DNA of 64,000 nt from Bdellovibrionota bacterium (GCA_041907145.1 JAYRHW010000283.1:1304-65303); one strand, 5' to 3'. Shown: positions 3,049-54,192, numbered from the stretch's first letter. Notes: generated by a model not told the origin, from the sequence alone. Numbers and translations are program-made.

Positions 3049-3624
3049 CTACTCTTCGAGTTCTTCTTCGGAAAGTATCGTCGAATGATCCACCGACTTC
3101 ACATCAGAGGCCTCTCCGCGCCACAATACTTGAACCAGCTGAAAGGACTCGCCCTCGACTCCTCCCTGGTTATACGGAACCACCTTATAGAGGTACGTAG
3201 ATCCAGCCTTAACCCCGTTATCGAGAAAGCTAAATTGCTTCAGATCATCGGAGATATGAACTCGACGGGTAGGTCTCCCTGCCGCCTTGGCCTCGTCTTT
3301 TGCCTTGGTTAGGGCTGCAAATGCCGTATCGGCGACAGAGCCCACTATGGCGAAATTATCTTGAAGATCGATCGCGTCCTTGGCTGTCAAAAGCTGCTTC
3401 CGATACACACGATAGCCATCCAGCGAGGTCAGTGACTTGCCCCGCTGATCGGAATCGGGAGCGCGCCAAGTAAACGCTACGCCGTCAAGCGTTCCTTTGA
3501 CGGTCAGAGCGCCGACAGCCTCCGGAGCAACCTTCTCCGGTGCGACGGGGGGCGCATAGCGACCGCATGAAGATAGAGAGATTCCTGCAGCGCAGAGTAT
3601 AATGAAGTGAGCCAGGGTTTTCAT
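3049..3624 (-). CDS. hypothetical lipoprotein, Fn3-like
   Basis: Lipoprotein signal peptide with a lipobox (LSSCG). The body is a beta-rich region resembling a fibronectin-III fold. No recognisable family. Confidence 0.5.
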   Translation of the reverse strand: MKTLAHFIILCAAGISLSSCGRYAPPVAPEKVAPEAVGALTVKGTLDGVAFTWRAPDSDQRGKSLTSLDGYRVYRKQLLTAKDAIDLQDNFAIVGSVADTAFAALTKAKDEAKAAGRPTRRVHISDDLKQFSFLDNGVKAGSTYLYKVVPYNQGGVEGESFQLVQVLWRGEASDVKSVDHSTILSEEELEE

Positions 3625-3740
3625 AGAATGCTCGTAATGGGCGCGGAAACGCGCGATAGCCGACCAGCCGAAAGTCTACACCACGGCAGAGCGAATTCCC
3701 AGCCAAAACCCGGAATGGACTCTCCTAAGCAGAACAATCG

Positions 3741-4307
3741 CTACTTGTCGACGAACCCGCGCAGACGCTTGCTACGACTAGGGTGCCGAAGTTTGCGCAG
3801 TGCTTTGGCCTCAATTTGGCGGATACGCTCACGAGTGACATCGAAGTTCTGACCAACCTCCTCGAGAGTATGATCGCTCTTCTCCCCGATACCGAACCGC
3901 ATGCGCAGCACTTTCTCCTCGCGAGGGGTAAGCGTTGCAAGCACCTTTCGAGTCTGCTCCTGCAGGTTCATGTTCACGACCGCATTAGCAGGGGACACGA
4001 CGCGCTTATCCTCGATGAAGTCTCCCAGATGGGAATCCTCTTCCTCGCCAATCGGAGTTTCCAGAGAAATAGGCTCCTTTGCGATCTTCAGAACCTTGCG
4101 GACCTTATCGATCGGTATCTCCATCTTTTCCGCGATCTCTTCCGGGGTCGGCTCACGGCCCAACTCCTGGACAAGTTGTCGCGAGGTGCGCACCAACTTA
4201 TTGATCGTTTCAATCATATGAACGGGGATACGAATGATTCTGGCCTGATCGGCAATCGCCCTCGTGATCGCTTGTCGAATCCACCAGGTGGCGTAGGTAG
4301 AGAACAT
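3741..4307 (-). CDS. rpoD: RNA polymerase sigma-70 (RpoD), C-terminal segment (regions 2.2-4.2), separated from the N-terminal segment by an in-frame TAA
   Basis: [22 protein letters not shown]...[14 protein letters not shown]...[14 protein letters not shown]...[33 protein letters not shown] is canonical sigma-70 region 2-4. The called ATG comes from a K-to-M change relative to the family consensus. Confidence 0.85.
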
Positions 4308-4319
4308 ATAGACGCGCTG

Positions 4320-5930
4320 TTACTCTAACTTATCCACGGCCTTCATCAGGCCGATATTTCCTTCCTGGATAAGATCGAGAAATTGCAATCCGCGATTGGT
4401 ATACTTCTTGGCGATCGACACCACCAAGCGCAGATTCGCCTCAACTAACTCCCGCTTAGCTTCATAAGCACGCACCTCGCCGTCACGCAAAACGCGAACG
4501 CAGCGCTGGTACTCAGCAATATCCATGAGAACTTTATTCTCATGCTCATCAAGCTTCTCCTTCACGGCTCGTAACTGGTCGCCCAAATCACGCGCTTCAG
4601 TGGCCTTCATTTTCAGGCGGCGACAAGCGCGTTTAAACTCAAGCTGATTCGGCGAAACGAGCTCGGGCATAGCCTCCAGCAACTCGGCACGCGGCCTGCC
4701 CACCCCTCTCTCTACGGCACCGAGCTCTGTCATTACGGCCTTGATAGTATCATCGGTCTCCTTGATGAGGTTGCTCATCTTGGCATACTGCTTGCCGTTC
4801 AGATTAAGCTTGATGATCTTGTTCGCATTGGCATCCAAGATCCGTCGATAGCGACGCTCGACCTCGGGTAAGTTGCGCTTATGCTGGCGCCTTGCAATGC
4901 GTAAATCTTCGAAAATCCTATGCGTGTCCTTGAGCGCCTTTTTATAAAGCGAGGCTCTCTTGAGAAATTTCTTGCGCTGCTCCTCGTCTTCCTGGTTGAC
5001 CTGTGGAGTCTTATCGTCCTCCTTTTGAGCGTCGTACTCGCCTTCCTCGTCCTCAGTAGGGCGCGGCTTCTTCTGTTCCTCCTCTTCCTCCTTCTCTTCG
5101 GCCTCGGCGGAGTCCTGCTCAGCCTCTTCCTCTTCGAAGAGATCGCGCAGTCGAACTTCTTCATTCTTAACTTGATCGAACAAGTTTACCGTGTAGAGCA
5201 GTGAAAGCGGCTGGCGCAGGGTCTGGTCCGTTGCAGCCTTAAGTCCAGCCTCTATTTTCTTGGCGATTTCTACTTCACCTTCACGAGTGAGAAGGCTTAC
5301 GTTTCCCATTTCGCGCAAATACATGCGCACGGGATCTGAGCTCTTGCCAAGCGCCGATGCATCGAGCGAATCGTCACCCGCCGGCTCCGGAGCAATGCCC
5401 GGATCCATCGCCTCTTCGAAGCCCTCGCTGTTCTGGTCTACGATATCGATATCGTTTTCACCGAACATGGAGATGACGTCTTCCATTTGGTCTTCGCTGA
5501 CCAGTTCGGAATCCAGTGCTTCATTCAAGTCTTCAACAGTGAGATAGCCCTTCTCCTTGCCGAGTTCCATCAAACGCGCGACTTCGACTTCCCCAACACC
5601 GCCCTTCTCGCCCTTCTTATCGGCTCCTGCAGGGCGATCCGTTTCGCCAGCAGTTTCATCCCGCGGTTTGCGTTCGAGTACCGGACCTGCCTTGGTCATT
5701 TTTACTACTGAGCGGGGCTGCTCGTGTTCCTTGCTTCCCTCGGCCTTCACAGCTCCGCGCTTCAGGTCCGTCGGCTCCGCATCAGAATCGCTCTTCTTCT
5801 TGCGGAGAGGAAGTGCCAGGCGTTTGCCCTTGAGCTTCACGACGGCGCGCGTTTTGACAGTTGACTTGGCAGCAAGCTTGACATCGCGTGCACCAGCGTC
5901 ACGCTTCTTAATTCTCTTCTTTACTTTCAC
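4320..5930 (-). CDS. rpoD: RNA polymerase sigma-70 (RpoD), N-terminal segment (region 1.1, acidic insert, 1.2, 2.1), ending at an in-frame TAA
   Basis: Ends ...[37 protein letters not shown]. It carries a long D/E-rich insert. The reading frame continues directly into the 3741..4307 segment. Confidence 0.85.
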
Positions 5931-6071
5931 GGACTGTTACCACCCTAAAAATGATAGGCGCACTCGAGTTGAATTTTGGCAAAATGAGATTACTTTCCGG
6001 CTGAAAAGCACCGACCCGACATCATAAGAATACTGAGCGAAATTACAAGACTACCAACCCTACACCGACGC

Positions 6072-7907
6072 TTAAAGTTGCTCAAGTCGGCGCTTGAGAA
6101 GGATCTTCTCATGCGCGAGCTCGGCCTTATGTTCCATAGCCTCGAGTTGCGACATTCGGACATCTATCTCTGTAATAGCTTGATTTAGCTTGAGTTTTTT
6201 GAAATGACTACGGCACTCGAGGACGCTCCGTTCGAAGTCCACCTCAGAATCCCCCTCCATCTCGTAGGAGCGGCGCCAATGAACGGTCCAGGAGTCACCA
6301 AATTCCTTTAGAAGGCCCTTTATGGTCTCTCGCTTCTCACTATCCGAGCGCCCCGCCTCAGAAACTACCGCATGCAGCCCTTCGATAAACCTCAAGGTCG
6401 ATGGATGCAGCCCCTCGCAAATATCAGCGTCCCGCAAAAGCTCGCTCGTGACTCTCTCCTTTAAAACCATCGCCGCGTGCAGGAGCTCGCGATCGGCCAA
6501 GGGGAGTTTCTCCACCTGAAGCACCGCCTGCGTCTCCTCGCTCCGCTTCTGCGGAGATGACTCCTGCACCGAAGTTGGGGAGCTCGTGCCATCCGGCTTC
6601 ACCAGAGCCTGCAGGTCTTTAGGATCGACCAAGAGTTTCAAAGCAGCTCGCTGCAGTAGGTCGCTCAGCTCAATGGTATTACGTACCCTTCGAAGAACGG
6701 CCACTAACTCCTCGGCTAATTTCCCCTTGGCAGCAGCCCCCATATCCTTGGCATCTTTCCACCCCGCCCGTGCCAGCAATGAGTCGATGAAGCAGTCCAG
6801 TAGAGAGACTCGCTCCAGCTGCTTGAGATAGGCTTCAGTCCTAGCCCCATGCTGCAAAGCGAGGGTATCGGGATCCTCACCATCCGGAATAAATAGAGCA
6901 TGAACATCGATCCCGCTATTAAGAAATATCGGAAAACACTTCGCGGCGGCAGTGCGCCCGGCAACATCGCCGTCAAAGAGAACATGCACTCGCTCCACCA
7001 GATGCTGAAGCCTCTTTACGTGCTGTTCGCTGACCGCCGTACCACAGGTGGCCACTACATTACGCACGCCGGCCTGCCAGAGGCCGACAACGTCCATATA
7101 CCCCTCGACCAAGTATACCTCCTTAACCTTTCGGATGGCGTCGAGCGCCTGGGGCAATCCGAAGAGAATTCGGTTCTTTTGGTAAACTGGAGTTTCCGGA
7201 GAATTCAGGTATTTTGGCGCGTTCCTGGCGGCACTGTCTTCGGCGAGAGCTGGAACGATTCGTCCGCCAAATCCGGCAATCTTGCGACCTTCAATAAGAA
7301 TGGGGAAGATTATCCGCGCTCGAAATGTGTCGTAGAGATCTCCCCGCGGGCTTCGGCGGATAAGACCTGACTGTAATAGCAGTGCCTCATCAAACTTATT
7401 CCTCTTCAGTTCCTCAGCGAGCGCGCCCCAGACGGCTGGTGCGTAACCGAATCCGAATTCATGAAGGGCCTTTTCGTTGATGTGCCTGGAAGTCAAATAC
7501 TCTTTGACCTGCGCTGGGGCAGACGCAAGCTGGCTGCGAAAAAACTCCTGAGCCATATTGTTGATGGCGAAGAGAATATCCCTGTGGGGAGCTTCCTGTT
7601 TTTGCGCGGTGCCGCCTTCGCGGCGAACTTCAATTCCGTAACGAGCGGCCAGCTCCTCGACAGCGTCCGGAAAGGAGAGCCCCCTGCTCTCCATCACGTA
7701 GGTGATCACATTTCCCGATACACCACAGCCAAAGCAGTGATAATAGCGACCGTTATCACGAATATGAAACGATGGCGTCTTCTCCGAATGGAACGGGCAA
7801 AGCGCGGTGAAGTGGGCGCCATTTCGCTTCAATTGAGTTTGTTCCCCGACAAGATCGACGAGGCTGGCGCGTTCCTTAATTTCCTCGATAGTAGTTGCGG
7901 ATATCAC
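6072..7907 (-). CDS. dnaG: DNA primase
   Basis: 611 aa with a CHC2 zinc-finger (CPFHSEKTPSFHIRDNGRYYHCFGCG) and TOPRIM region (EGYMDV). Classic position upstream of rpoD. Confidence 0.9.
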   Translation of the reverse strand: MISATTIEEIKERASLVDLVGEQTQLKRNGAHFTALCPFHSEKTPSFHIRDNGRYYHCFGCGVSGNVITYVMESRGLSFPDAVEELAARYGIEVRREGGTAQKQEAPHRDILFAINNMAQEFFRSQLASAPAQVKEYLTSRHINEKALHEFGFGYAPAVWGALAEELKRNKFDEALLLQSGLIRRSPRGDLYDTFRARIIFPILIEGRKIAGFGGRIVPALAEDSAARNAPKYLNSPETPVYQKNRILFGLPQALDAIRKVKEVYLVEGYMDVVGLWQAGVRNVVATCGTAVSEQHVKRLQHLVERVHVLFDGDVAGRTAAAKCFPIFLNSGIDVHALFIPDGEDPDTLALQHGARTEAYLKQLERVSLLDCFIDSLLARAGWKDAKDMGAAAKGKLAEELVAVLRRVRNTIELSDLLQRAALKLLVDPKDLQALVKPDGTSSPTSVQESSPQKRSEETQAVLQVEKLPLADRELLHAAMVLKERVTSELLRDADICEGLHPSTLRFIEGLHAVVSEAGRSDSEKRETIKGLLKEFGDSWTVHWRRSYEMEGDSEVDFERSVLECRSHFKKLKLNQAITEIDVRMSQLEAMEHKAELAHEKILLKRRLEQL

Positions 7908-7913
7908 AGTATA

Positions 7914-9104
7914 TCAAACGGTACGAATGAGGATGGCGATTCCCTGCCCGCCTCCAACGCATAGCGTGGCTAGCCCGAGGGAGCCGTTCGCGCGTCGCAG
8001 CTGATGCACTAAGGTTACCAAAATTCGTGCGCCGCTCGCGCCGATGGGGTGCCCAAGCGCGATAGCTCCGCCGCAAACATTGACCTTACGAACGTCCCAC
8101 TCGAGTAGTTTGTTCACTGCCAGCGCCTGCGCGGCAAAGGCTTCATTCGCTTCTATTAGGTCGACTTGTTCGATAGAGACTCCGGTCTTGGCTAGAACCT
8201 TTTTCACCGCCCCCACCGGACCGATGCCCATAACTTCGGGTTCAACTGCGGCGCTTGCCCAACCGAGGATTTCCGCCAGGGGGGATACTCCCCATGCATC
8301 GGCTTGCGTCTTCGAAGCTAGAACCACCGCAGCCGCTCCATCGTTGATTCCCGACGCATTACCGGCGGTAACAGTTCCATCCTTCTTGAAGGCGGGCCGC
8401 AAGCTCTTGAGGGATTCCAGCGTGCAGTCCTTGCGCGGATGCTCGTCGATTTGGAAGGTTCCCGTCACCTTTCCCCGCTTCATGAGCGGTACGGCAACCA
8501 CCTCGTCGGAGAATGCGCCGCTTGCCAGCGCCGCCTGAGCCTTTAGTTGACTGCCATAGGCGAATTCGTCCTGAGCCTCTCGACTGATTCCGTAGCGCTC
8601 CGCCAAATTCTCAGCCGTAATCCCCATATGACAGGAATTGAAGACATCGGTCAGGCCATCCTGCAGAATTAAGTCGCGCAATTCGCCATGTCCTAGACGG
8701 GAGCCCCAGCGCGCCCCGAGCGAGACGTACCCAGCCTGCGACATGCTTTCCACCCCCCCTGCCGCGATGCACTGCGCGTTTCCGCACGAGATTTCAGCGG
8801 CAGCAAGCGCGATTGCCTTCAACCCAGAGCCGCAAACCTTATTCACGGTGTAAGCCGGGGTGCCTATGGCCAGACCTGACTTAAGGCATACCTGACGAGC
8901 GAGATTCATCCCTTGTCCAGCCGCCAGCACATTTCCAAGAATGACTTCGTCGAGGGTCGCACCTTCGGGCACTCTGGCACGGCGCAAGGCCTCCTTAAAG
9001 GCAATTGCCCCAAGCTCCGCCGGAGCCGTATCGATTAAGCTACCGCCAAACCCGCCAATTGCGGTACGAGCCGCAGATACTAGAAATACTGGCTCAGTGC
9101 GCAT
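7914..9104 (-). CDS. acetyl-CoA C-acetyltransferase (thiolase)
   Basis: 396 aa with the thiolase active-site Cys region (VNKVCGSGLKAI) and the C-terminal CVGGGQGIA motif. Confidence 0.85.
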   Translation of the reverse strand: MRTEPVFLVSAARTAIGGFGGSLIDTAPAELGAIAFKEALRRARVPEGATLDEVILGNVLAAGQGMNLARQVCLKSGLAIGTPAYTVNKVCGSGLKAIALAAAEISCGNAQCIAAGGVESMSQAGYVSLGARWGSRLGHGELRDLILQDGLTDVFNSCHMGITAENLAERYGISREAQDEFAYGSQLKAQAALASGAFSDEVVAVPLMKRGKVTGTFQIDEHPRKDCTLESLKSLRPAFKKDGTVTAGNASGINDGAAAVVLASKTQADAWGVSPLAEILGWASAAVEPEVMGIGPVGAVKKVLAKTGVSIEQVDLIEANEAFAAQALAVNKLLEWDVRKVNVCGGAIALGHPIGASGARILVTLVHQLRRANGSLGLATLCVGGGQGIAILIRTV

Positions 9105-9106
9105 GA

Positions 9107-9619
9107 CTATCCCTCGTTCTCTTCCCCACCGGAAGTATATTCATACTCGACAAAGATCTCGACAATTTCGTATTCCTTTGCGCCACCAGGCAGGGCCACT
9201 TTGACAACATCGCCCTGCTCCTTTCCGATGAGCGCCTTTCCCAGCGGAGACTCAAAGGAGATCCATCCGCGGTCAACATCGGACTCCTCGGATCCAACGA
9301 TGCTGATGGTCTTTCTGTCGCCGGAGTTCAATTCCTCGATTGTCGCGGATAAACCGAAAACCACCTTGGTCACATTTGAAATCTTTCGCGGATCGATTAT
9401 CTCCGCCATCGATAAGCGGGTCTCGATATCGCGGATTTTACCCTCGACCATTCCAGACTTATTCTTGGCGGCATCGTAATCTCCATTCTCGGAAAGATCG
9501 CCGTGCCCGCGAGCAATCTCGATCGCGCGCGCAAGTTCTGGTCGCATGGCCTTTAGCTTCAGCAGCTCAGAGCGAAGAGAATCATAGCCGCGCGGAGTCA
9601 TTGGTCTTTTCATGAACAC
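9107..9619 (-). CDS. greA: transcription elongation factor GreA
   Basis: 170 aa. The coiled-coil N-terminus carries the conserved acidic tip (GDLSENGDYDAAK) and is followed by an FKBP-like C-terminus. Confidence 0.85.
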   Translation of the reverse strand: MFMKRPMTPRGYDSLRSELLKLKAMRPELARAIEIARGHGDLSENGDYDAAKNKSGMVEGKIRDIETRLSMAEIIDPRKISNVTKVVFGLSATIEELNSGDRKTISIVGSEESDVDRGWISFESPLGKALIGKEQGDVVKVALPGGAKEYEIVEIFVEYEYTSGGEENEG

Positions 9620-9687
9620 CTCGTTCTACAGGAACCTTCGACCTTAACGCACTACAGGCCGAAGTTCAATGCATTCAGAATGATGGA

Positions 9688-12600
9688 TTAGAGCGCCTGA
9701 TGGTAGTCCTGTAGCGCCTTTACCTGGATGATATTCGTGCGCTGCATTAGCTCCATTGCCTGCACGGCAGCGCTGGCCGCCGACATCGTCGTATAGGTCG
9801 GAATCTTCAATTCGTTCGAAACTAGACGTATCGATCGTGAATCCAGCAGCGGGCTCGACCCTTCCGGGGTATTGATGACCAATGAAATGTCACCGGCACC
9901 AATGAGGTCTACGATATGGGGTTGCCCCTCTCGCACCTTGTTCACCTCCTCGGAATGAATGCCGTGGGTGCGCAGATACGAAGCTGTGCCTCGTGTGGCC
10001 ACAAGACCAAATCCGATCGAGACAAGTCGACGAGCAACTTCGAGCAGATCCTCCTTGTCCCCATCCAGCACGCTCAAGAAGGCCTTCCCAGGTCGTGGCA
10101 GCGCGATATTGGCAGCAAACTGAGACTTGGCGAAGGCTCCGGGAAATTCGGCGAACATACCCATCACTTCCCCGGTCGACTTCATCTCAGGCCCGAGGAT
10201 AGTGTCCACGCCCTCGAATTTACTGAATGGAAATACGCAAGCCTTCACGGAGACGAAGCTGGATGGAGTGACCTCTCTAGCCTTGAGCTGCGCTAAGCTC
10301 TTTCCCGCCATTGCTCGAGCGGCGACTTTCGCCCAAGGAATTCCCGTAGCCTTACTGACAAACGGCACGGTACGCGAAGCTCGAGGGTTAACTTCCAGAA
10401 TGTAGACAATCTTATCCCTCGAAACCGCAAACTGCACATTCATCAATCCAACGACCTTAAGCTCGCGAGCCAACAGTTTAGCCTGCTCCTTCATTTGCGC
10501 GATGACATTAGGGGAAAGGGTTTGGGGCGGCAGACAACAAGAGCTGTCGCCGGAATGAATACCGGCGCGCTCGATATGCTCCATCACGCCGGCGACCATA
10601 ACTTCCTTCCCGTCTGAGACGCAGTCGACATCTACCTCGATTGCATTATGAAGATAACGATCGAGCAGCACAGGACGCTGATGCGAGACGCCCACTGACT
10701 CACCCATATACTGCGCGAGCTCTTCATCGTTGTGCACGACTCGCATCGCGCGACCACCAAGGACGAAGGAGGGGCGGATCATCAAGGGATAGCCAATTCT
10801 ATGGGCCGCTTGTAACGCTTCATCAGAATTGCTGGCCGTGCTCCCTTCAGGCTGTCGCAGCTTGAGACTATTAATCAGAGCAGCGAAGCGTTTGCGGTCC
10901 TCGGCAATATCGATTGACTCAACCGACGTTCCGATGATCGGAACTCCCGCCCTTTGCAGTTCGCTCGCTAGCTTAAGCGGCGTCTGCCCACCGAATTGCA
11001 CGATAACTCCGGTGGGCTTCTCTCGCTCGACAATAGCAAGCACTGATTCGAGTGTGAGCGGCTCGAAATACAGGCGATCGGCCGTATCGTAGTCAGTGGA
11101 AACCGTCTCTGGATTGCAATTTACCATGATGGTCTCGAAGCCATCTTCCTTGAGCGCCAACACGGCATGCACGCAGCAGTAGTCAAATTCGATGCCCTGA
11201 CCAATGCGGTTCGGTCCTGATCCAAGGATCATGATTTTCTTCCTCTGTGTCGGCGGCGCTTCTGTAGCTGCATCATAGGAGGAGTACAAATATGGAGTAT
11301 GGGCGACAAACTCCGCGGCGCAGGTGTCCACCGATTTGAATACAGGTGTTATGCCCCAGGCCTTTCGCTGATCGCGCACCTCGAACTCCGAGGCACCCAG
11401 AAGCTTGCCGATGCGGGAATCTGAAAATCCGTCTCGTTTGAGAGCCCGCATAGAATTGGCATCCAAACCAGAGAGTCGCCTGCCCTTCAACCCCTCCTCG
11501 GCTTCAATGATGGCCTCCAGTTCAGAGAGGAACCACAGGTCGATACCCGTAGCGTCGTAGAGAGCCTTTGCCTTATATCCTGCCCGCAATGCTTCGCCGA
11601 CTATCCATAGACGATGCGGACTGGGCCTCTTGCAGAGCTCGAATATCTCTCCTTTGCCTAAATCTTTAACCAGCGAGTGTCGGTCGAAGCCCGCAGTATC
11701 GAGCTCCATGGAGCAGATGGCTTTTTGCATGGCCTCGCGGAAATTTCTTCCAAAAGACAGCACTTCACCTACGCTCTTCATCTGGGTTCCCAGCGTCGTA
11801 TCAGCCATCGGGAACTTTTCGAAATTGAAGCGGGGAATTTTTACTACGACGTAATCAATCGACGGTTCGAAGCACGCCGGCGTCTCCCGAGTGATGTCAT
11901 TGCGCACCTCATCAAGCGTGTACCCAACGGCCAACTTGGCAGCAATTTTAGCAATCGGAAATCCCGTCGCTTTGGAAGCCAAGGCGGAGCTGCGCGATAC
12001 TCGAGGATTCATCTCGATGACGATGACCCGCCCATTCGAAGGGTTAAGAGCAAACTGAACGTTCGAGCCGCCTGTATCGACGCCGATTCGCCGCATAACG
12101 GCGATCGACGCGTCGCGCAGTATCTGATATTCCTTGTCAGTGAGTGTTTGGATTGGGGCCACCGTGATGGAATCCCCTGTATGAACCCCCATGGGGTCGA
12201 AGTTCTCGATCGGACATACAATGACGACATTGTCCTTCAGATCTCGCATCACCTCGAGTTCAATCTCTTTCCATCCCAGCAAAGATTCCTCGATAAGCAC
12301 TTCGCGGTTAGGGCTCGCACGAAGAGCGTGCGAAACCTTGCGCCGCAATTCCGAAGCGTCCTTTACTATTCCACCCCCGGTACCTCCGAGGGTGCGAGAC
12401 GGCCTCAGAATTAGGGGAAAGCCGATTAGCTCCGCAATCATCTCAGCGTCTTCAACCGAGTGCGCCACGCCGCTCTTAGCCGACTCCAGTCCAATCTCAT
12501 CCATCGCTCTACGGAAGAGCTCGCGATCCTCTGCGGTCTTTATTGCCTCCAAATTGGCGCCAATGAGCTCGCAGTCGTACTTTTCAAAAACTCCCCGTGC

Positions 12601-18296: not shown

Positions 18297-18640
18297 GATA
18301 AGAGCTCCGGAAGCTTCTTCACGAAAACAGAGCGCGGATAGATCTCCTTCATCCCCTCGTCACTGGCAGCCTTCTCCAGCTCATGGTCGACATGAGAATA
18401 ATACGCCACAAGTCTTACCGGGCGCGTGGACTTCCGGGTGCTATCAAGAACCTCGGCCCTATTCCAGTCCGCAGCTGAAAGATCCATTAGAATAAGACCA
18501 GCACCCAGTAGAATACCCTCACGCAGCTCAGCGATATCACGAACCGCTCTACAATTCTGCCCCAGTTCACGAGCTAGCGCGGAAATCTTGGATTTAAAAA
18601 TCAGGTCGCGGCTGATAACGAGGATGCTAGGCGAGTCCAT
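18284..18640 (-). CDS. receiver-like (degenerate CheY-fold) domain protein
   Basis: 118 aa with alternating beta/alpha pattern (ILVISRD ... LILMDLS ... RLVAYYSH). The canonical DD and K residues are missing. It overlaps the upstream sigma-54 activator stop by 14 bp. Confidence 0.45.
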   Translation of the reverse strand: MDSPSILVISRDLIFKSKISALARELGQNCRAVRDIAELREGILLGAGLILMDLSAADWNRAEVLDSTRKSTRPVRLVAYYSHVDHELEKAASDEGMKEIYPRSVFVKKLPELLSQVS

Positions 18641-20021
18641 AGGATTTTACCTTAGCAATGAGATTGGAGCGAGAAATTCCCAATTCCTTCGCTGCCTCGG
18701 AGCGGTTTCCCTTCGCTCTCTCGAGTGCGGACTGAATCATGTTCCTTTCGACATTTTCGATGGCATCCTTGAGATTGCCCTCCAGACGTCGTCCCTGGGC
18801 GGGAGGCAGGGGCCGTTCTCGCAGGTGAGCTGAAATCAAATCTGCATCGATTACGCTCGAGCTCCCTGCCATAAGCACCAAACGCTCAATTTCGTTTTCG
18901 AGCTCACGGATGTTCCCAGGCCAATGGTAGTCGCTCAATACACGAAGGGCATCCACACTCAGGGCCTTAACGGGGGACTTGCTCCGCTCCGCGATTACCT
19001 TCAGAAAGTGTGCGGCCAGGAGAGGTATATCCACTCGTCGCTCACGAAGCGGTGGGATTCGGACAGAGATCACATTCAGTCGATAATATAAATCCTCACG
19101 GAAAGTACCGGCCGCGACCATCTGTTTCAGATCGCGGTTCGTAGCAGCGATGATGCGTACATCCACTTTCTTGGTTTTGGTAGCTCCAACAGGCATGAAA
19201 GTGCCGTCCTGTAACACCCGCAGCAGCTTAACCTGCAGCGCTGGGCTCATCTCACCTAGCTCATCGAGGAAAAAGGTTCCGCCGTCAGCAACCTCGAAAA
19301 GCCCCTGCTTGTCTCGCACGGCTCCGGTAAACGCTCCGCGAACGTGCCCAAAAAGCTCCGATTCCAGTAGATTATCATTGAAGGCCGAGCAGTTCTGAAT
19401 TACGAAGGGCTTGTTCTTCCGAGGAGAATGATAGTGCAGCGCACTGGCAATCAGCTCCTTTCCGGTACCTGATTCACCGGTGATCAGGACTGGCACGTCG
19501 GAATCGCGCACCTTGTCCAGCAAAGCGAAGAGATCGCGCATGATCTGGCTCGCCCCGATGATATTCGCAAAGCAAGCGCGTTCCGACTCGCGCGATCGCA
19601 GCTCGGCGGTGACTCGATTGGAGCGCTGAAGCTCCTCGTAGAGCCTTCGCGTGCGCATGACGGCCGCGAGCCGCGCCATCAACTCCCCACTATCGAAGGG
19701 GCGGCGAACATAGTCATCCGCTCCGTTCTCAAGCCCTGCAATTAATGCCTCACTGGAGTCGTTCGCTGTGACAAGAACTACGGGAATATAGCGCATTGCC
19801 GCATCAGCCTTAATGCGCTTGGTAACCTCAAACCCATCCATGCCGGGCATATTCACGTCCAGTAAGATGAGATCCGGATTCTCGGCCTCGATGCGCCTGA
19901 GAGCATCAGCTCCGTTCCCAGCGGTCACCGTGCTAAAGCCGTTCTTCTGTAGGACCTGCTCCAGCGCGAAAAGTCCATCTTCATTGTCATCAACGACGAG
20001 GACTTTTGTTCGTACTGACAT
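18627..20021 (-). CDS. sigma-54-dependent response regulator (NtrC family)
   Basis: A REC domain (VLVVDDNEDG ... LLDVNMPGMDG) is followed by an AAA+ sigma-54 interaction domain (GESGTGKELIASALH; the GAFTGA-like loop; HWPGNIRELEN) and a C-terminal Fis-type HTH. Confidence 0.9.
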   Translation of the reverse strand: MSVRTKVLVVDDNEDGLFALEQVLQKNGFSTVTAGNGADALRRIEAENPDLILLDVNMPGMDGFEVTKRIKADAAMRYIPVVLVTANDSSEALIAGLENGADDYVRRPFDSGELMARLAAVMRTRRLYEELQRSNRVTAELRSRESERACFANIIGASQIMRDLFALLDKVRDSDVPVLITGESGTGKELIASALHYHSPRKNKPFVIQNCSAFNDNLLESELFGHVRGAFTGAVRDKQGLFEVADGGTFFLDELGEMSPALQVKLLRVLQDGTFMPVGATKTKKVDVRIIAATNRDLKQMVAAGTFREDLYYRLNVISVRIPPLRERRVDIPLLAAHFLKVIAERSKSPVKALSVDALRVLSDYHWPGNIRELENEIERLVLMAGSSSVIDADLISAHLRERPLPPAQGRRLEGNLKDAIENVERNMIQSALERAKGNRSEAAKELGISRSNLIAKVKSYGLA

Positions 20022-42830: not shown

Positions 42831-42972
42831 AAGGGAGGGATAATAAGCTAGTTCAGATACTTAGGCAAACTGGCTGCTTTTATCTTAATCCTATGGAGAG
42901 CTTGTCAGGCCTTCGCCTCCTACCGGTCCGCGGAATGGTTGGCGTCTCGAAGTGCCGAAGATTTTAGCGAGA

Positions 42973-43117
42973 GGATGGGTGCAGGGGCTAGGCCCTTGCC
43001 CGTCTTCGGAATCTTGGCGCAGCCAAGTATCGAAATATTAAATATTAACGGTGGGATGGGGTGCAGGGGCTAGGCCCTTGCCCGTCTTCGGAATCTTGGC
43101 GCAGCCAAGTTCCGAAA
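42973..43117. repeat. tandem direct repeat of two units of about 63 bp, each carrying two short perfect palindromes
   Basis: Unit A 42973-43035 and unit B 43053-43117 are about 95% identical: gatggg(g)tGCAGGGGCtagGCCCTTGCccgtcttcggaatCTTGGCgcaGCCAAGt..cgaaa. They are separated by an AT-rich 17-bp spacer (period about 81 bp). Confidence 0.7.
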
Positions 43118-43120
43118 GGT

Positions 43121-43173
43121 AAAATAAAGCGCGGCGGCTTCCTCGTGTCTCCACTAAGAATGCCGCCGCGCGC
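43121..43173 (-). terminator. strong terminator-like hairpin (10-bp all-GC stem) followed on the minus strand by a U-rich run
   Basis: GCGCGGCGGC (43129-43138) pairs perfectly with GCCGCCGCGC (43162-43171) over a 23-nt loop. On the minus strand it is followed by UUUAUUUU (fwd aaaataaa 43121-43128). Confidence 0.45.
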
Positions 43174-44155
43174 ATGGCAGAAAGTTAAGTCCCTCGAGAG
43201 ACGAAACTTTTGTCTTTAAGCTCCAAGCGCTCTTGCGATGGTGTCCTACTCCCGGGTTAGCGAAAGTCGGTCCTGTCTGAGAGCACTGACCGTTAGGCCA
43301 GTCGAAGCTTGGATACCTGAGTAAAGATCTCCAATGGTAGACTAATCACCCCCTGAGTTTAAACTGCAATGTTTTGAATATCGCAGCCTTTTCTGTCTGC
43401 AGCTTTCGTTCAAAGTGGCTTTGCCTGTTTTCACAGTACCTACTTTCGCAGGTTTTTCCACCAAGACCTTCCTCCCTTTCGGGATTCGCTGTCATCAGTT
43501 TTGCTAATTGCGGATACTCCTGTTTCCAGTTTCACCGTTTACAGCTTTTCTCAGATCCTCCACCGAACCCTTTCGGGTTGATAGAAGCGAGGGCTTTGCT
43601 CCATCGATACCGCGACAAAGCCGAAGCCTTGTTTCGCGCTATCTGACGATCTCCGCTGGTCGCCCAACGAAGCCCTTTCCATGAGAGTCGGTCACCCAAA
43701 ACAATGGATTCCAAGACGTCAAACTGAAAGCAAGCGAACGAAAAATCGGTTTCCCGTCTATCGCAGCCTCCCCTCATCTCCTTCACTGGCGAACCAGAGA
43801 GATCAACGATGAACAGACAAGGCCTTCACTTCTCTACGTCTCAGAGAGCCACCGCTCTCTTCACTCTGACTCTTAAGTACCTTCGCCTCGCGGCAAGATC
43901 AATAAAAAACGGGAACTGAATTGGAAATTTCTCAAGATGTTGAATCTTTCTTTCTTCGATCCATGACGAGCGAGTTATCCACAATGTTGGAAAAATTTTT
44001 ATCTTAGTGGTCAGACACATCAAACAACTTCAACACACTTGAAGGTGTTACTCAGCCCGCACCAGGCCACTATTCATACGACGTTCCATTTTTTGAGCGC
44101 TTCGGCAGACTAGCTGGCGCCCGGAGATGAGTGCTGCTCTAACCAGCTAATACCA
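43174..44155. other. about 1-kb ORF-poor non-coding segment downstream of ftsK; candidate structured ncRNA or degenerate element, identity unknown
   Basis: No ORF of 60 aa or more has a credible start or composition on either strand. The segment is AT-richer than flanking genes. It has several short GC stems closed by UUCG-type tetraloops (ccctttcggg at two places) and mutually exclusive stem options near 43590-43650. Confidence 0.3.
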
Positions 44156-52547: not shown

Positions 52548-53975
52548 CTACTCTTCGGAGTTCTCACTCTGACTGTTCGCTACTTCCGGCCTGTCACTTA
52601 TACCGAGCTTATCCATCTTATATTTTAATATCCGGCGGCTAATCCCAAGCAACTCGGCAGCACGCGTCTGTACGAAGTTCGTCTTGCGCAGAGCCTTGAG
52701 AATCATCTCGCTCTCGAACATCTTCTCCGCTTCCTCGAATTTCATTGAATCGTCGAACGCCGGCGCCTTGAACCCTTCTAAGCTGCTTCGTGCCTTCAGC
52801 TTGCGCGGAAGATCGGCGTCCGTCACTTGCTCCTGCGGCGACAAAGCCATGAGGCTCTCGATTACGTTCTCGAGTTCCCGCACATTACCCGGCCAATCAT
52901 ACTGAACGAGAATGTTCATGGCCTCAGGCGATAGCTGCAGCTTCTTCCCCCCGTAAACCGGGGAGAACTTCTGGAGAAAATGCTCAACCAGAGATGGTAT
53001 ATCCTCGTAGCGATCGCGTAGCGGCGGCAGATTTACGCCGATAACATTGATGCGATAGTAGAGGTCCTGTCTGAACATCTTGGACTTTATCAATTCCTCT
53101 AGATTCTTGTTTGTAGCTGCGATAATGCGCACATCCACTTTAATCGGCTTCGAGCGACCTACTCTATAAAACTCCTGCTCCTGCAGGAAGCGCAGCATCT
53201 TTACCTGAACCGGCAGGCTCAATTCTCCAATCTCATCGAGGAACAACGTTCCTCCATCCGCCAACTCGCAGTGGCCGATGCGGCGTTCCACGGCGTGTGT
53301 AAATGCTCCGCGTTCATGACCGAATAACTCCGACTCGATCAAAGTCTCGGGTATGGCAGCACAGTTGAGCGCGATGAAGGGTTTGTTCTTTCGCGGGCTC
53401 AGCTCATGTATCTGGCGCGCAATCAGCTCTTTGCCGGTGCCCGACTCCCCTGTAATGAGCACCGTTGTGTCACGCTCCGCGACTTGACGAACCTTTTGAA
53501 ATAACTCGCTCATGCCGCCGCACTTGCCGACCATCGGCCCGAAATCAGCTGCCGGCGCCGGAATATGGCGCCCAGAGTTCTCCGCGCCCGCTGTGAGTCG
53601 CACGTCTGCGTTCGACAGCGTTCCGATGATCAGGGTAGTCAGCTCCTCCACTTCGAAGGGCTTGCTCAAATAATCCACTGCGCCCCACTTCATCGCCTGC
53701 ACCGCTGTCTTAACCGTATTCGTCGCCGTCAGCATGATGACCGGAGCTTCGATACTGCGCTCCTTGAGCTGCTTGAGGGTCTGCATGCCATCGAGATTCG
53801 GCATGAGAACATCGAGTAGTATAAGATCTGGTTTGATATCGTCGATAACGCTCAAAGCCTGCTGACCGTCCTCGGCTGTATGAACGTCAAAGCTGCTCTT
53901 TAGGAGCAGGCGCAGTGAATCGCGCACCCCTGCCTCGTCGTCGACTATCAGCACGCGCTTTCTAGGCTCTAACAT
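52548..53975 (-). CDS. sigma-54-dependent response regulator (NtrC family)
   Basis: REC (VLIVDDEAGVRD ... LLDVLMPNLDG), an AAA+ sigma-54 domain (GESGTGKELIARQIH, GAFTHA loop, WPGNVRELEN) and an HTH. The ORF-track start at 54023 is probably too far upstream. MLEPRKR at 53975 is more likely. Confidence 0.9.
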   Translation of the reverse strand: MLEPRKRVLIVDDEAGVRDSLRLLLKSSFDVHTAEDGQQALSVIDDIKPDLILLDVLMPNLDGMQTLKQLKERSIEAPVIMLTATNTVKTAVQAMKWGAVDYLSKPFEVEELTTLIIGTLSNADVRLTAGAENSGRHIPAPAADFGPMVGKCGGMSELFQKVRQVAERDTTVLITGESGTGKELIARQIHELSPRKNKPFIALNCAAIPETLIESELFGHERGAFTHAVERRIGHCELADGGTLFLDEIGELSLPVQVKMLRFLQEQEFYRVGRSKPIKVDVRIIAATNKNLEELIKSKMFRQDLYYRINVIGVNLPPLRDRYEDIPSLVEHFLQKFSPVYGGKKLQLSPEAMNILVQYDWPGNVRELENVIESLMALSPQEQVTDADLPRKLKARSSLEGFKAPAFDDSMKFEEAEKMFESEMILKALRKTNFVQTRAAELLGISRRILKYKMDKLGISDRPEVANSQSENSEE

Positions 53976-54192
53976 AAGAATCCACCGTCCCGGCCAACAC
54001 TTTTTCCTCAAAGTAAGATGCAATTTTGAACAGCTCGGTCACCCCGTACTTACAAAAAATGTGCGTTGCGGCGAGCCTAACCCTGTTCACCCTAGGGAAT
54101 ATAGGAAATTCAGCCACTTAGAAAGGGCCAATTTGGGCGGATGTCGGTCAATTTTGCACAGACGCAGGCGCTACCTAAGGCCTGGCAGCCCT

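Follow-up and report, generated by a model that had tools for sequence, protein, structure and literature searches.

The rpoD gene of an uncultured Bdellovibrionota member carries, in its deposited metagenome assembly, an in-frame TAA that lies within a patch of base changes at 4306-4326. We believe that this patch is probably an uncorrected consensus error of the assembly and no biological feature, which would give it a technical cause, and that rpoD is most likely intact in living cells. Taken literally, the sequence would truncate the sigma factor after the region 2.2 helix, with loss of the parts for promoter melting and for –10 and –35 recognition (regions 2.3–4.2); a cell with one primary sigma factor should not survive such a truncation. 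Positions are those of the window, the whole 64-kb stretch of DNA that was analyzed. An earlier note on this DNA had listed three options for the interruption without choosing among them. The first, a cluster of sequencing or assembly errors, fits the results best; the second, a disrupted copy with an intact paralogue, is disfavored; and the third, stop read-through or a split sigma factor, found no support.

The rpoD locus and its two reading frames

The features of the locus are the following.

3741..5930, minus strand: rpoD, primary (group 1) sigma-70 factor, of 729 codons with the TAA counted as sense
4320..5930, minus strand: N-terminal ORF, 536 aa, GTG start; basic extension, regions 1.1 and 1.2, non-conserved region, region 2.1 and the 2.2 helix; last residues AVDKLE
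3741..4307, minus strand: C-terminal ORF, 188 aa, with an ATG from a K-to-M change; regions 2.3–2.4, 3 and 4
6072..7907, minus strand: dnaG (primase), directly upstream of rpoD; Pfam Zn_ribbon_DnaG, DNAG_N and Toprim
6021..6048, minus strand: promoter-like site (TTGTAA, 16 nt, TATGAT) in the dnaG-rpoD spacer; a consensus match alone, no commoner than in shuffled sequence

Translation of the reverse strand over 3741-5930 bore out two claims of the earlier note, that a TAA interrupts rpoD in frame at 4320-4322 and that the frame is otherwise continuous over the full length of the gene. The 536-aa ORF gave Pfam matches to Sigma70_r1_1, r1_2, ner and r2, the last of which broke off at model position 41 of 71, and the 188-aa ORF matched sigma-70 regions r3 and r4. 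Across the two ORFs, regions 1.1, 1.2, non-conserved, 2, 3 and 4 of a group 1 sigma-70 are all present and in order, as they are in E. coli sigma-70 (PDB 4jk1 chain X), and E. coli residues 377–525 align over their full length with the 150 residues that surround the patch. Unlike that of E. coli sigma-70, the window frame is cut by the TAA at the Y421 position, with three neighboring invariant residues changed, and the single open frame of a group 1 sigma-70 over regions 2.1–4.2 is broken there.

The window protein also differs from E. coli sigma-70 in a basic, Lys/Arg-rich extension of ~115 aa ahead of region 1.1 (rpoD codons 1–115, window 5590-5930, minus strand). This extension is shared with relatives in the Bdellovibrionota and neighboring lineages, whose N-terminal extensions are alike in length and composition and show little sequence identity. 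A long acidic insert had been placed in region 1 by the earlier note. The acidic, Glu-rich stretch is there (~aa 265–320), but its place is the non-conserved region that separates region 1.2 from region 2.1, where the Pfam Sigma70_ner match spans aa 246–461 of the rpoD product.

The rpoD product is 81% identical to the annotated RpoD (MBN8549475.1) of the nearest relative, the metagenome-assembled genome UWPOB_DELTA1 (JAFLCA010000069), in which rpoD is intact. The order of nine genes, carB-greA-thiolase-dnaG-rpoD-hypothetical-dapA-dapB-iclR, is identical in the window and in this relative. Because the gene order matches that of a relative with an intact rpoD, we regard the window gene as the organism's housekeeping copy and not a spare; judged from sequence, the gene at 3741-5930 is the predicted housekeeping sigma gene in the orthologous position downstream of dnaG. 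The same gene order argues against the reading that this is a disrupted rpoD copy whose intact paralogue lies elsewhere in the genome, and so does the lack of relaxed constraint on the gene described below. No second sigma-70 family gene besides rpoD was found in the 64-kb window.

The promoter-like site at 6021..6048 was the sole such match across 3600-6200, and it lies upstream of the entire rpoD gene. Directly downstream of rpoD, 3049-3624 (minus strand) encodes a 191-aa protein without a Pfam match, whose position is kept in 10 of 10 related loci at an identity of just 34–45%. Elsewhere, the window encodes two sigma-54-dependent response regulators (18627-20021 and 52548-54023, minus strand) with receiver, AAA+ and Fis-type HTH domains, which indicates that the organism also relies on sigma-54.

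Both ORF products are present in a public protein collection, with a single NCBI contig of 66,881 nt as their source, and the 536-aa product is identical to the protein called on that contig. Since both products derive from the NCBI contig, the stop and the new ATG belong to the deposited record. No entry for the exact 188-aa and 536-aa products was found in a position index.

Four changes at invariant sigma-70 positions

The elements of the patch are listed here, with alleles given on the gene strand.

4306..4326, minus strand: the patch, 21 bases with four transversions
4320..4322, minus strand: in-frame TAA at the site of a conserved Tyr (E. coli Y421), read as tta on the plus strand
4326, minus strand: C to A, TTC to TTA, F to L (E. 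coli sigma-70 F419L)
4320, minus strand: C or T to A, TAC/TAT to TAA, Y to stop (E. coli sigma-70 Y421stop)
4312, minus strand: G to T, GGC to GTC, G to V (E. coli sigma-70 G424V)
4306, minus strand: A to T, AAG to ATG, K to M (E. coli sigma-70 K426M)

The two versions of the patch-spanning sequence are AAGTTAGAGTAACAGCGCGTCTATATGTTC and AAGTTCGAGTACCAGCGCGGCTATAAGTTC. E. coli numbering comes from an alignment of query residues 1–149 to residues 377–525 of 4jk1 chain X, which places the equivalents of F419, Y421, G424 and K426 at the boundary between regions 2.2 and 2.3. The motif of the lineage is DKFEYQRGYKF, whereas the window reads DKLE-stop-QRVYMF. DKFEYQRGYKF was present in the ten nearest loci and in all 24 protein relatives read, with GF for GY in one protein. 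Among the loci where the motif was found, F, Y or W, G and K were invariant (76 of 76 relatives); the earlier note had described the affected motif as near-invariant. The codons in these 76 relatives were TTC (68) or TTT (8) for F, TAC (55), TAT (18) or TGG (3) for Y/W, and AAG (65) or AAA (11) for K. The frame ran uninterrupted through all 24 of the sequences read and all 76 motif-bearing loci.

The Gln that follows the Tyr is found in 10 of 10 nearest relatives and in 26 of 76 overall. Because all ten nearest relatives have it, we take the Gln of the window motif to be native, and the total comes to four changes where the earlier note had counted the stop plus four or five further substitutions. 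Its statement that a K-to-M change creates the ATG of the 3741..4307 ORF was correct (AAG to ATG at 4306).

Five residues in the last 247 codons set the window apart from the nearest relative, and four of these fall inside 8 codons (permutation P = 0.0003). All four changes in the patch are non-synonymous transversions, and in strand-neutral terms three are C>A and one is T>A. In the neighboring genes, private changes at columns invariant among relatives reached a maximum of 1–2 per 10 residues, compared to 4 in rpoD. The new bases on the gene strand are A, A, T and T at spacings of 6, 8 and 6, an arrangement that is reverse-complement symmetric and gives the same pattern on both strands.

Constraint, stop usage and translation signals

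Both halves of rpoD appeared strongly constrained. Compared with the nearest relative, 0 amino acids and 26 third positions differed in the 52 codons before the patch, and 1 amino acid and 104 third positions differed in the 187 codons that follow the new ATG. With roughly half of the third positions and almost no residues differing, purifying selection must have maintained both halves until now. We looked for the relaxed constraint or further lesions beyond the patch that accompany pseudogene decay, and found neither (0 of 52 and 1 of 187 residue differences). Since the flanks show no relaxed selection, the patch is either extremely recent or not biological. That invariant residues of the primary copy are hit while the flanks stay constrained counts in favor of a consensus error.

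The use of stop codons in the window bears on whether a full-length sigma factor could be made by decoding the TAA, be it through read-through, through a suppressor tRNA or through codon reassignment. The stop falls exactly at a Tyr codon in a continuous frame, as such decoding would have it. However, TAA ends 17 of the 50 window ORFs examined for their stops (TAG 23, TGA 10), among them tsf and a dihydroorotase-like gene, each of which is directly followed by a different gene. rpoD is the only window gene with an in-frame TAA. A tRNA that suppresses TAA would carry the anticodon UUA; within the 64-kb window we found no tRNA genes and no Rfam elements, including any known recoding RNA. Decoding would also leave L419, V424 and M426 at invariant positions. 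With TAA an ordinary terminator and no other interrupted gene in the window, recoding was rejected, and we consider it almost certain that the codon is not read as sense.

At eight other sites, two long open stretches lie in one frame with a single stop between them. The six of these with flanks of >200 codons are pairs of different adjacent genes by Pfam (carA/dihydroorotase-like, OpcA/G6PD, M16 peptidase/BrkB, permease/AAA ATPase, pyrH/tsf and thiolase/dnaG), and the two on the plus strand (28939 and 46449) lie opposite minus-strand genes with complete Pfam matches. Apart from rpoD, no broken ORF of at least 130 aa was found in the window by Pfam, a few ORFs having no match and the rest complete domains, with rho, rpsB, tsf, pyrH, frr, uppS, cdsA, dxr, rseP and ftsK among the complete matches. 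The view of the earlier note that no other large gene has an internal stop is upheld by these gene pairs and complete domains. Separately, the lolA-ftsK interval (42831-44155) is a non-coding stretch of 1.3 kb, unusually long for a window that is otherwise tightly packed; neither strand has an ORF >90 aa, and Rfam gave no match (E up to 0.1).

Translation signals at the new ATG bear on a different reading, a naturally split primary sigma factor in which translation stops at the TAA and re-initiates 12 bases on, with fragments of regions 1.1–2.2 and 2.3–4.2 assembling on RNA polymerase. The new in-frame ATG lies 12 bases after the stop, four codons on. When four random substitutions were simulated in the patch, a stop arose in 28–35% of cases, and 3–5% of the simulated patches containing a stop also had a downstream in-frame ATG. 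This makes the sequence of stop and ATG a mild coincidence and not a signal, although it does count against the error reading to that extent. The break also maps to the short linker between the region 2.2 and 2.3 helices, and both halves are otherwise perfectly conserved; both points count for a split.

Against this, the 20 nt ahead of the new ATG gave an anti-Shine-Dalgarno pairing of –2.4 kcal/mol, compared to a gene median of –4.8 kcal/mol, and 66% of window ATGs pair equally well or better; no Shine-Dalgarno signal was found before the 188-aa ORF. A consensus search of 3600-6200 found no internal promoter within rpoD. The split is seen in none of the 76 relatives and in one assembly only. 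With it the protein would lose YQRGY and have F419 and K426 changed, all of these residues being invariant, and F>L and G>V play no part in splitting. A natural split of this kind is highly improbable in our view, and it is extremely improbable that the stop and ATG are real and fixed, with a Bdellovibrionota lineage making its primary sigma factor as two polypeptides that reassemble on RNA polymerase. Even when a working split sigma factor and read-through are taken together, either one is very unlikely.

The layout does resemble known systems in which sigma function is encoded by two ORFs, such as B. subtilis sigK/skin and SigO-RsoA. In B. subtilis sigK, a large DNA element (skin) interrupts the gene and is excised to rejoin it, whereas only 12 bases lie between the ORFs in the window. 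SigO-RsoA is a two-subunit sigma factor (PMC10141391) made from separately evolved genes with their own translation signals, unlike the 188-aa ORF, which has no such signal. Unlike in either system, no relative shares the split seen in the window. In a literature search, we found no described case of rpoD being naturally split at region 2.2/2.3.

Possible origin of the patch and coverage of the strain in an independent assembly

The patch coincides with an imperfect inverted repeat.

4298..4327, minus strand: imperfect inverted repeat, TAGAG-T-AACA, 11 nt, TGTT-CTCTA; arms 4327..4318 and 4306..4298

Quasi-palindrome templated mutation, in which template switching occurs at imperfect inverted repeats, has been described in E. 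coli. Several substitutions arise at once in such events and bring the repeat closer to perfect pairing. In the inferred ancestor, three of the nine stem pairs are mismatched, and the changes at 4326, 4320 and 4306 pair exactly those three. When four substitutions were placed at random, 0.3% of the sets reached nine or more stem pairs of which three or more were new (P about 0.003, a statistic chosen after the hairpin had been seen). However, the gain in folding energy from the patch changes was ordinary (P about 0.25), and the changes are not confined to one arm: the 5' arm has two of them (4326 and 4320), the 3' arm has one (4306), and the remaining one (4312) falls in the loop. Because both arms and the loop are affected, a single one-arm template switch fails to explain the patch. 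A hairpin-templated origin is suggestive for three of the changes. We see in it a hint, and no more, that the patch may go back to miscopying by a polymerase, whether in the cell or in library preparation. The window was also searched for a gene-conversion donor, and it has no other copy of the patch at up to 3 mismatches. A nearby 17-nt inverted repeat and a 23-nt direct repeat were also rejected as donors, with one match gained and one lost by the changes.

The hairpin is one ground for a rival reading, in which a multi-base mutation occurred very recently in the sampled population and the patch is a real but dead allele. The hairpin also counts somewhat against a consensus error, since a polymerase template switch is possible in cells too. 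Such an allele could have arisen by template switching at the imperfect inverted repeat or by error-prone repair synthesis. Its recovery could mean that the assembly traced a minority or dying sub-lineage, or that the loss is covered by another primary-like sigma gene elsewhere in the genome. The absence of decay elsewhere in rpoD fits a very recent event, and the population may be micro-diverse, as one SNP separates two assemblies of the strain (see below). However, the dnaG-rpoD context marks this as the primary copy, of which a null allele should not reach consensus frequency. In addition, no single simple template switch covers all four changes, the folding gain is ordinary and the window offers no donor sequence. 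The mutation class also speaks against it. Natural variation is transition-rich and mostly synonymous, and a spectrum of C>A and T>A only is atypical of it; the patch in this respect resembles damage-type or miscall-type errors. Overall, we consider a dead allele unlikely.

Independent evidence on the strain comes from run SRR26835457, whose Logan assembly also includes it. A 3.2-kb Logan contig matched window 10104..7831 at 2274 of 2274 bases, and a 1.4-kb contig matched 4200..2831 at 1369 of 1370 bases. Three of the five complete genes tested were absent from this assembly. The 1.4-kb contig stops at 4200, inside the most conserved part of rpoD and 106 bases from the patch. Short contigs, missing genes and a contig end near the patch indicate that the strain is thinly or ambiguously covered in SRR26835457, and the end at 4200 fits a branching or thinly covered assembly graph. 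The lone difference between the deposited and Logan sequences, at 3154 in the hypothetical gene 3049-3624, is a synonymous A/G transition (GAG vs GAA). Either the strain population has real micro-diversity or the two assemblies were drawn from different reads. The contrast between this real strain polymorphism, a synonymous transition, and the four non-synonymous transversions of the patch favors the error reading.

The patch is flanked by 4276-4298 and 4327-4355, whose 17-mers are common to 19 and 33 loci, respectively. Across the 13 kb examined, these two are the islands most widely shared with other taxa, and such islands make assembly of the patch site from a mixed community difficult. A consensus error is also favored by this difficulty and by read support that is thin or tangled. 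In JGI metagenomes we found no match to the patch, with its four bases left free, and no rpoD N-terminus of the same species; a same-species locus was not found among the matches listed from a genome collection, and the literature search found no report naming SRR26835457.

We therefore return to the consensus error as the preferred reading. Consensus errors in metagenome-assembled genomes cause false pseudogenes, including through C>A / G>T library artefacts of oxidative damage. Like such false pseudogenes, the patch is an isolated lesion of C>A and T>A class only in a strongly constrained essential gene, and it lies in a highly conserved, hard-to-assemble region of a low-abundance organism. 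Unlike them, it has four changes in 21 bases where a single-base error is usual, and its one A>T change is not of the 8-oxoguanine type seen in oxidative-damage artefacts. Short-read assemblers normally let a four-error patch survive only with at least two supporting reads. The source was probably a single aberrant molecule in the library, carrying damage or polymerase errors, that determined the consensus where this low-abundance organism had thin read coverage; we assume that overlapping mates or duplicates of the one molecule would have supplied the needed read support.

The isolation of the patch cuts both ways. That the neighboring genes have no similar clusters and that all other genes are intact counts in favor of an error confined to this site. 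The contig is otherwise clean over 64 kb, which indicates that the assembly is not generally error-prone and counts against an error. General sloppiness of the assembly was accordingly rejected as an explanation, with every other gene examined intact.

The case has a practical value: in a metagenome bin, an error confined to one short patch can make the gene of an essential, universally conserved protein look like a pseudogene or a split gene. Two-sided constraint, mutation class, stop usage, translation signals, relatives and independent assemblies served as indirect tests that separate error from biology. Were the stop nevertheless real and fixed, the primary sigma factor of this bacterium would be broken or in two pieces, a remarkable finding for transcription biology.
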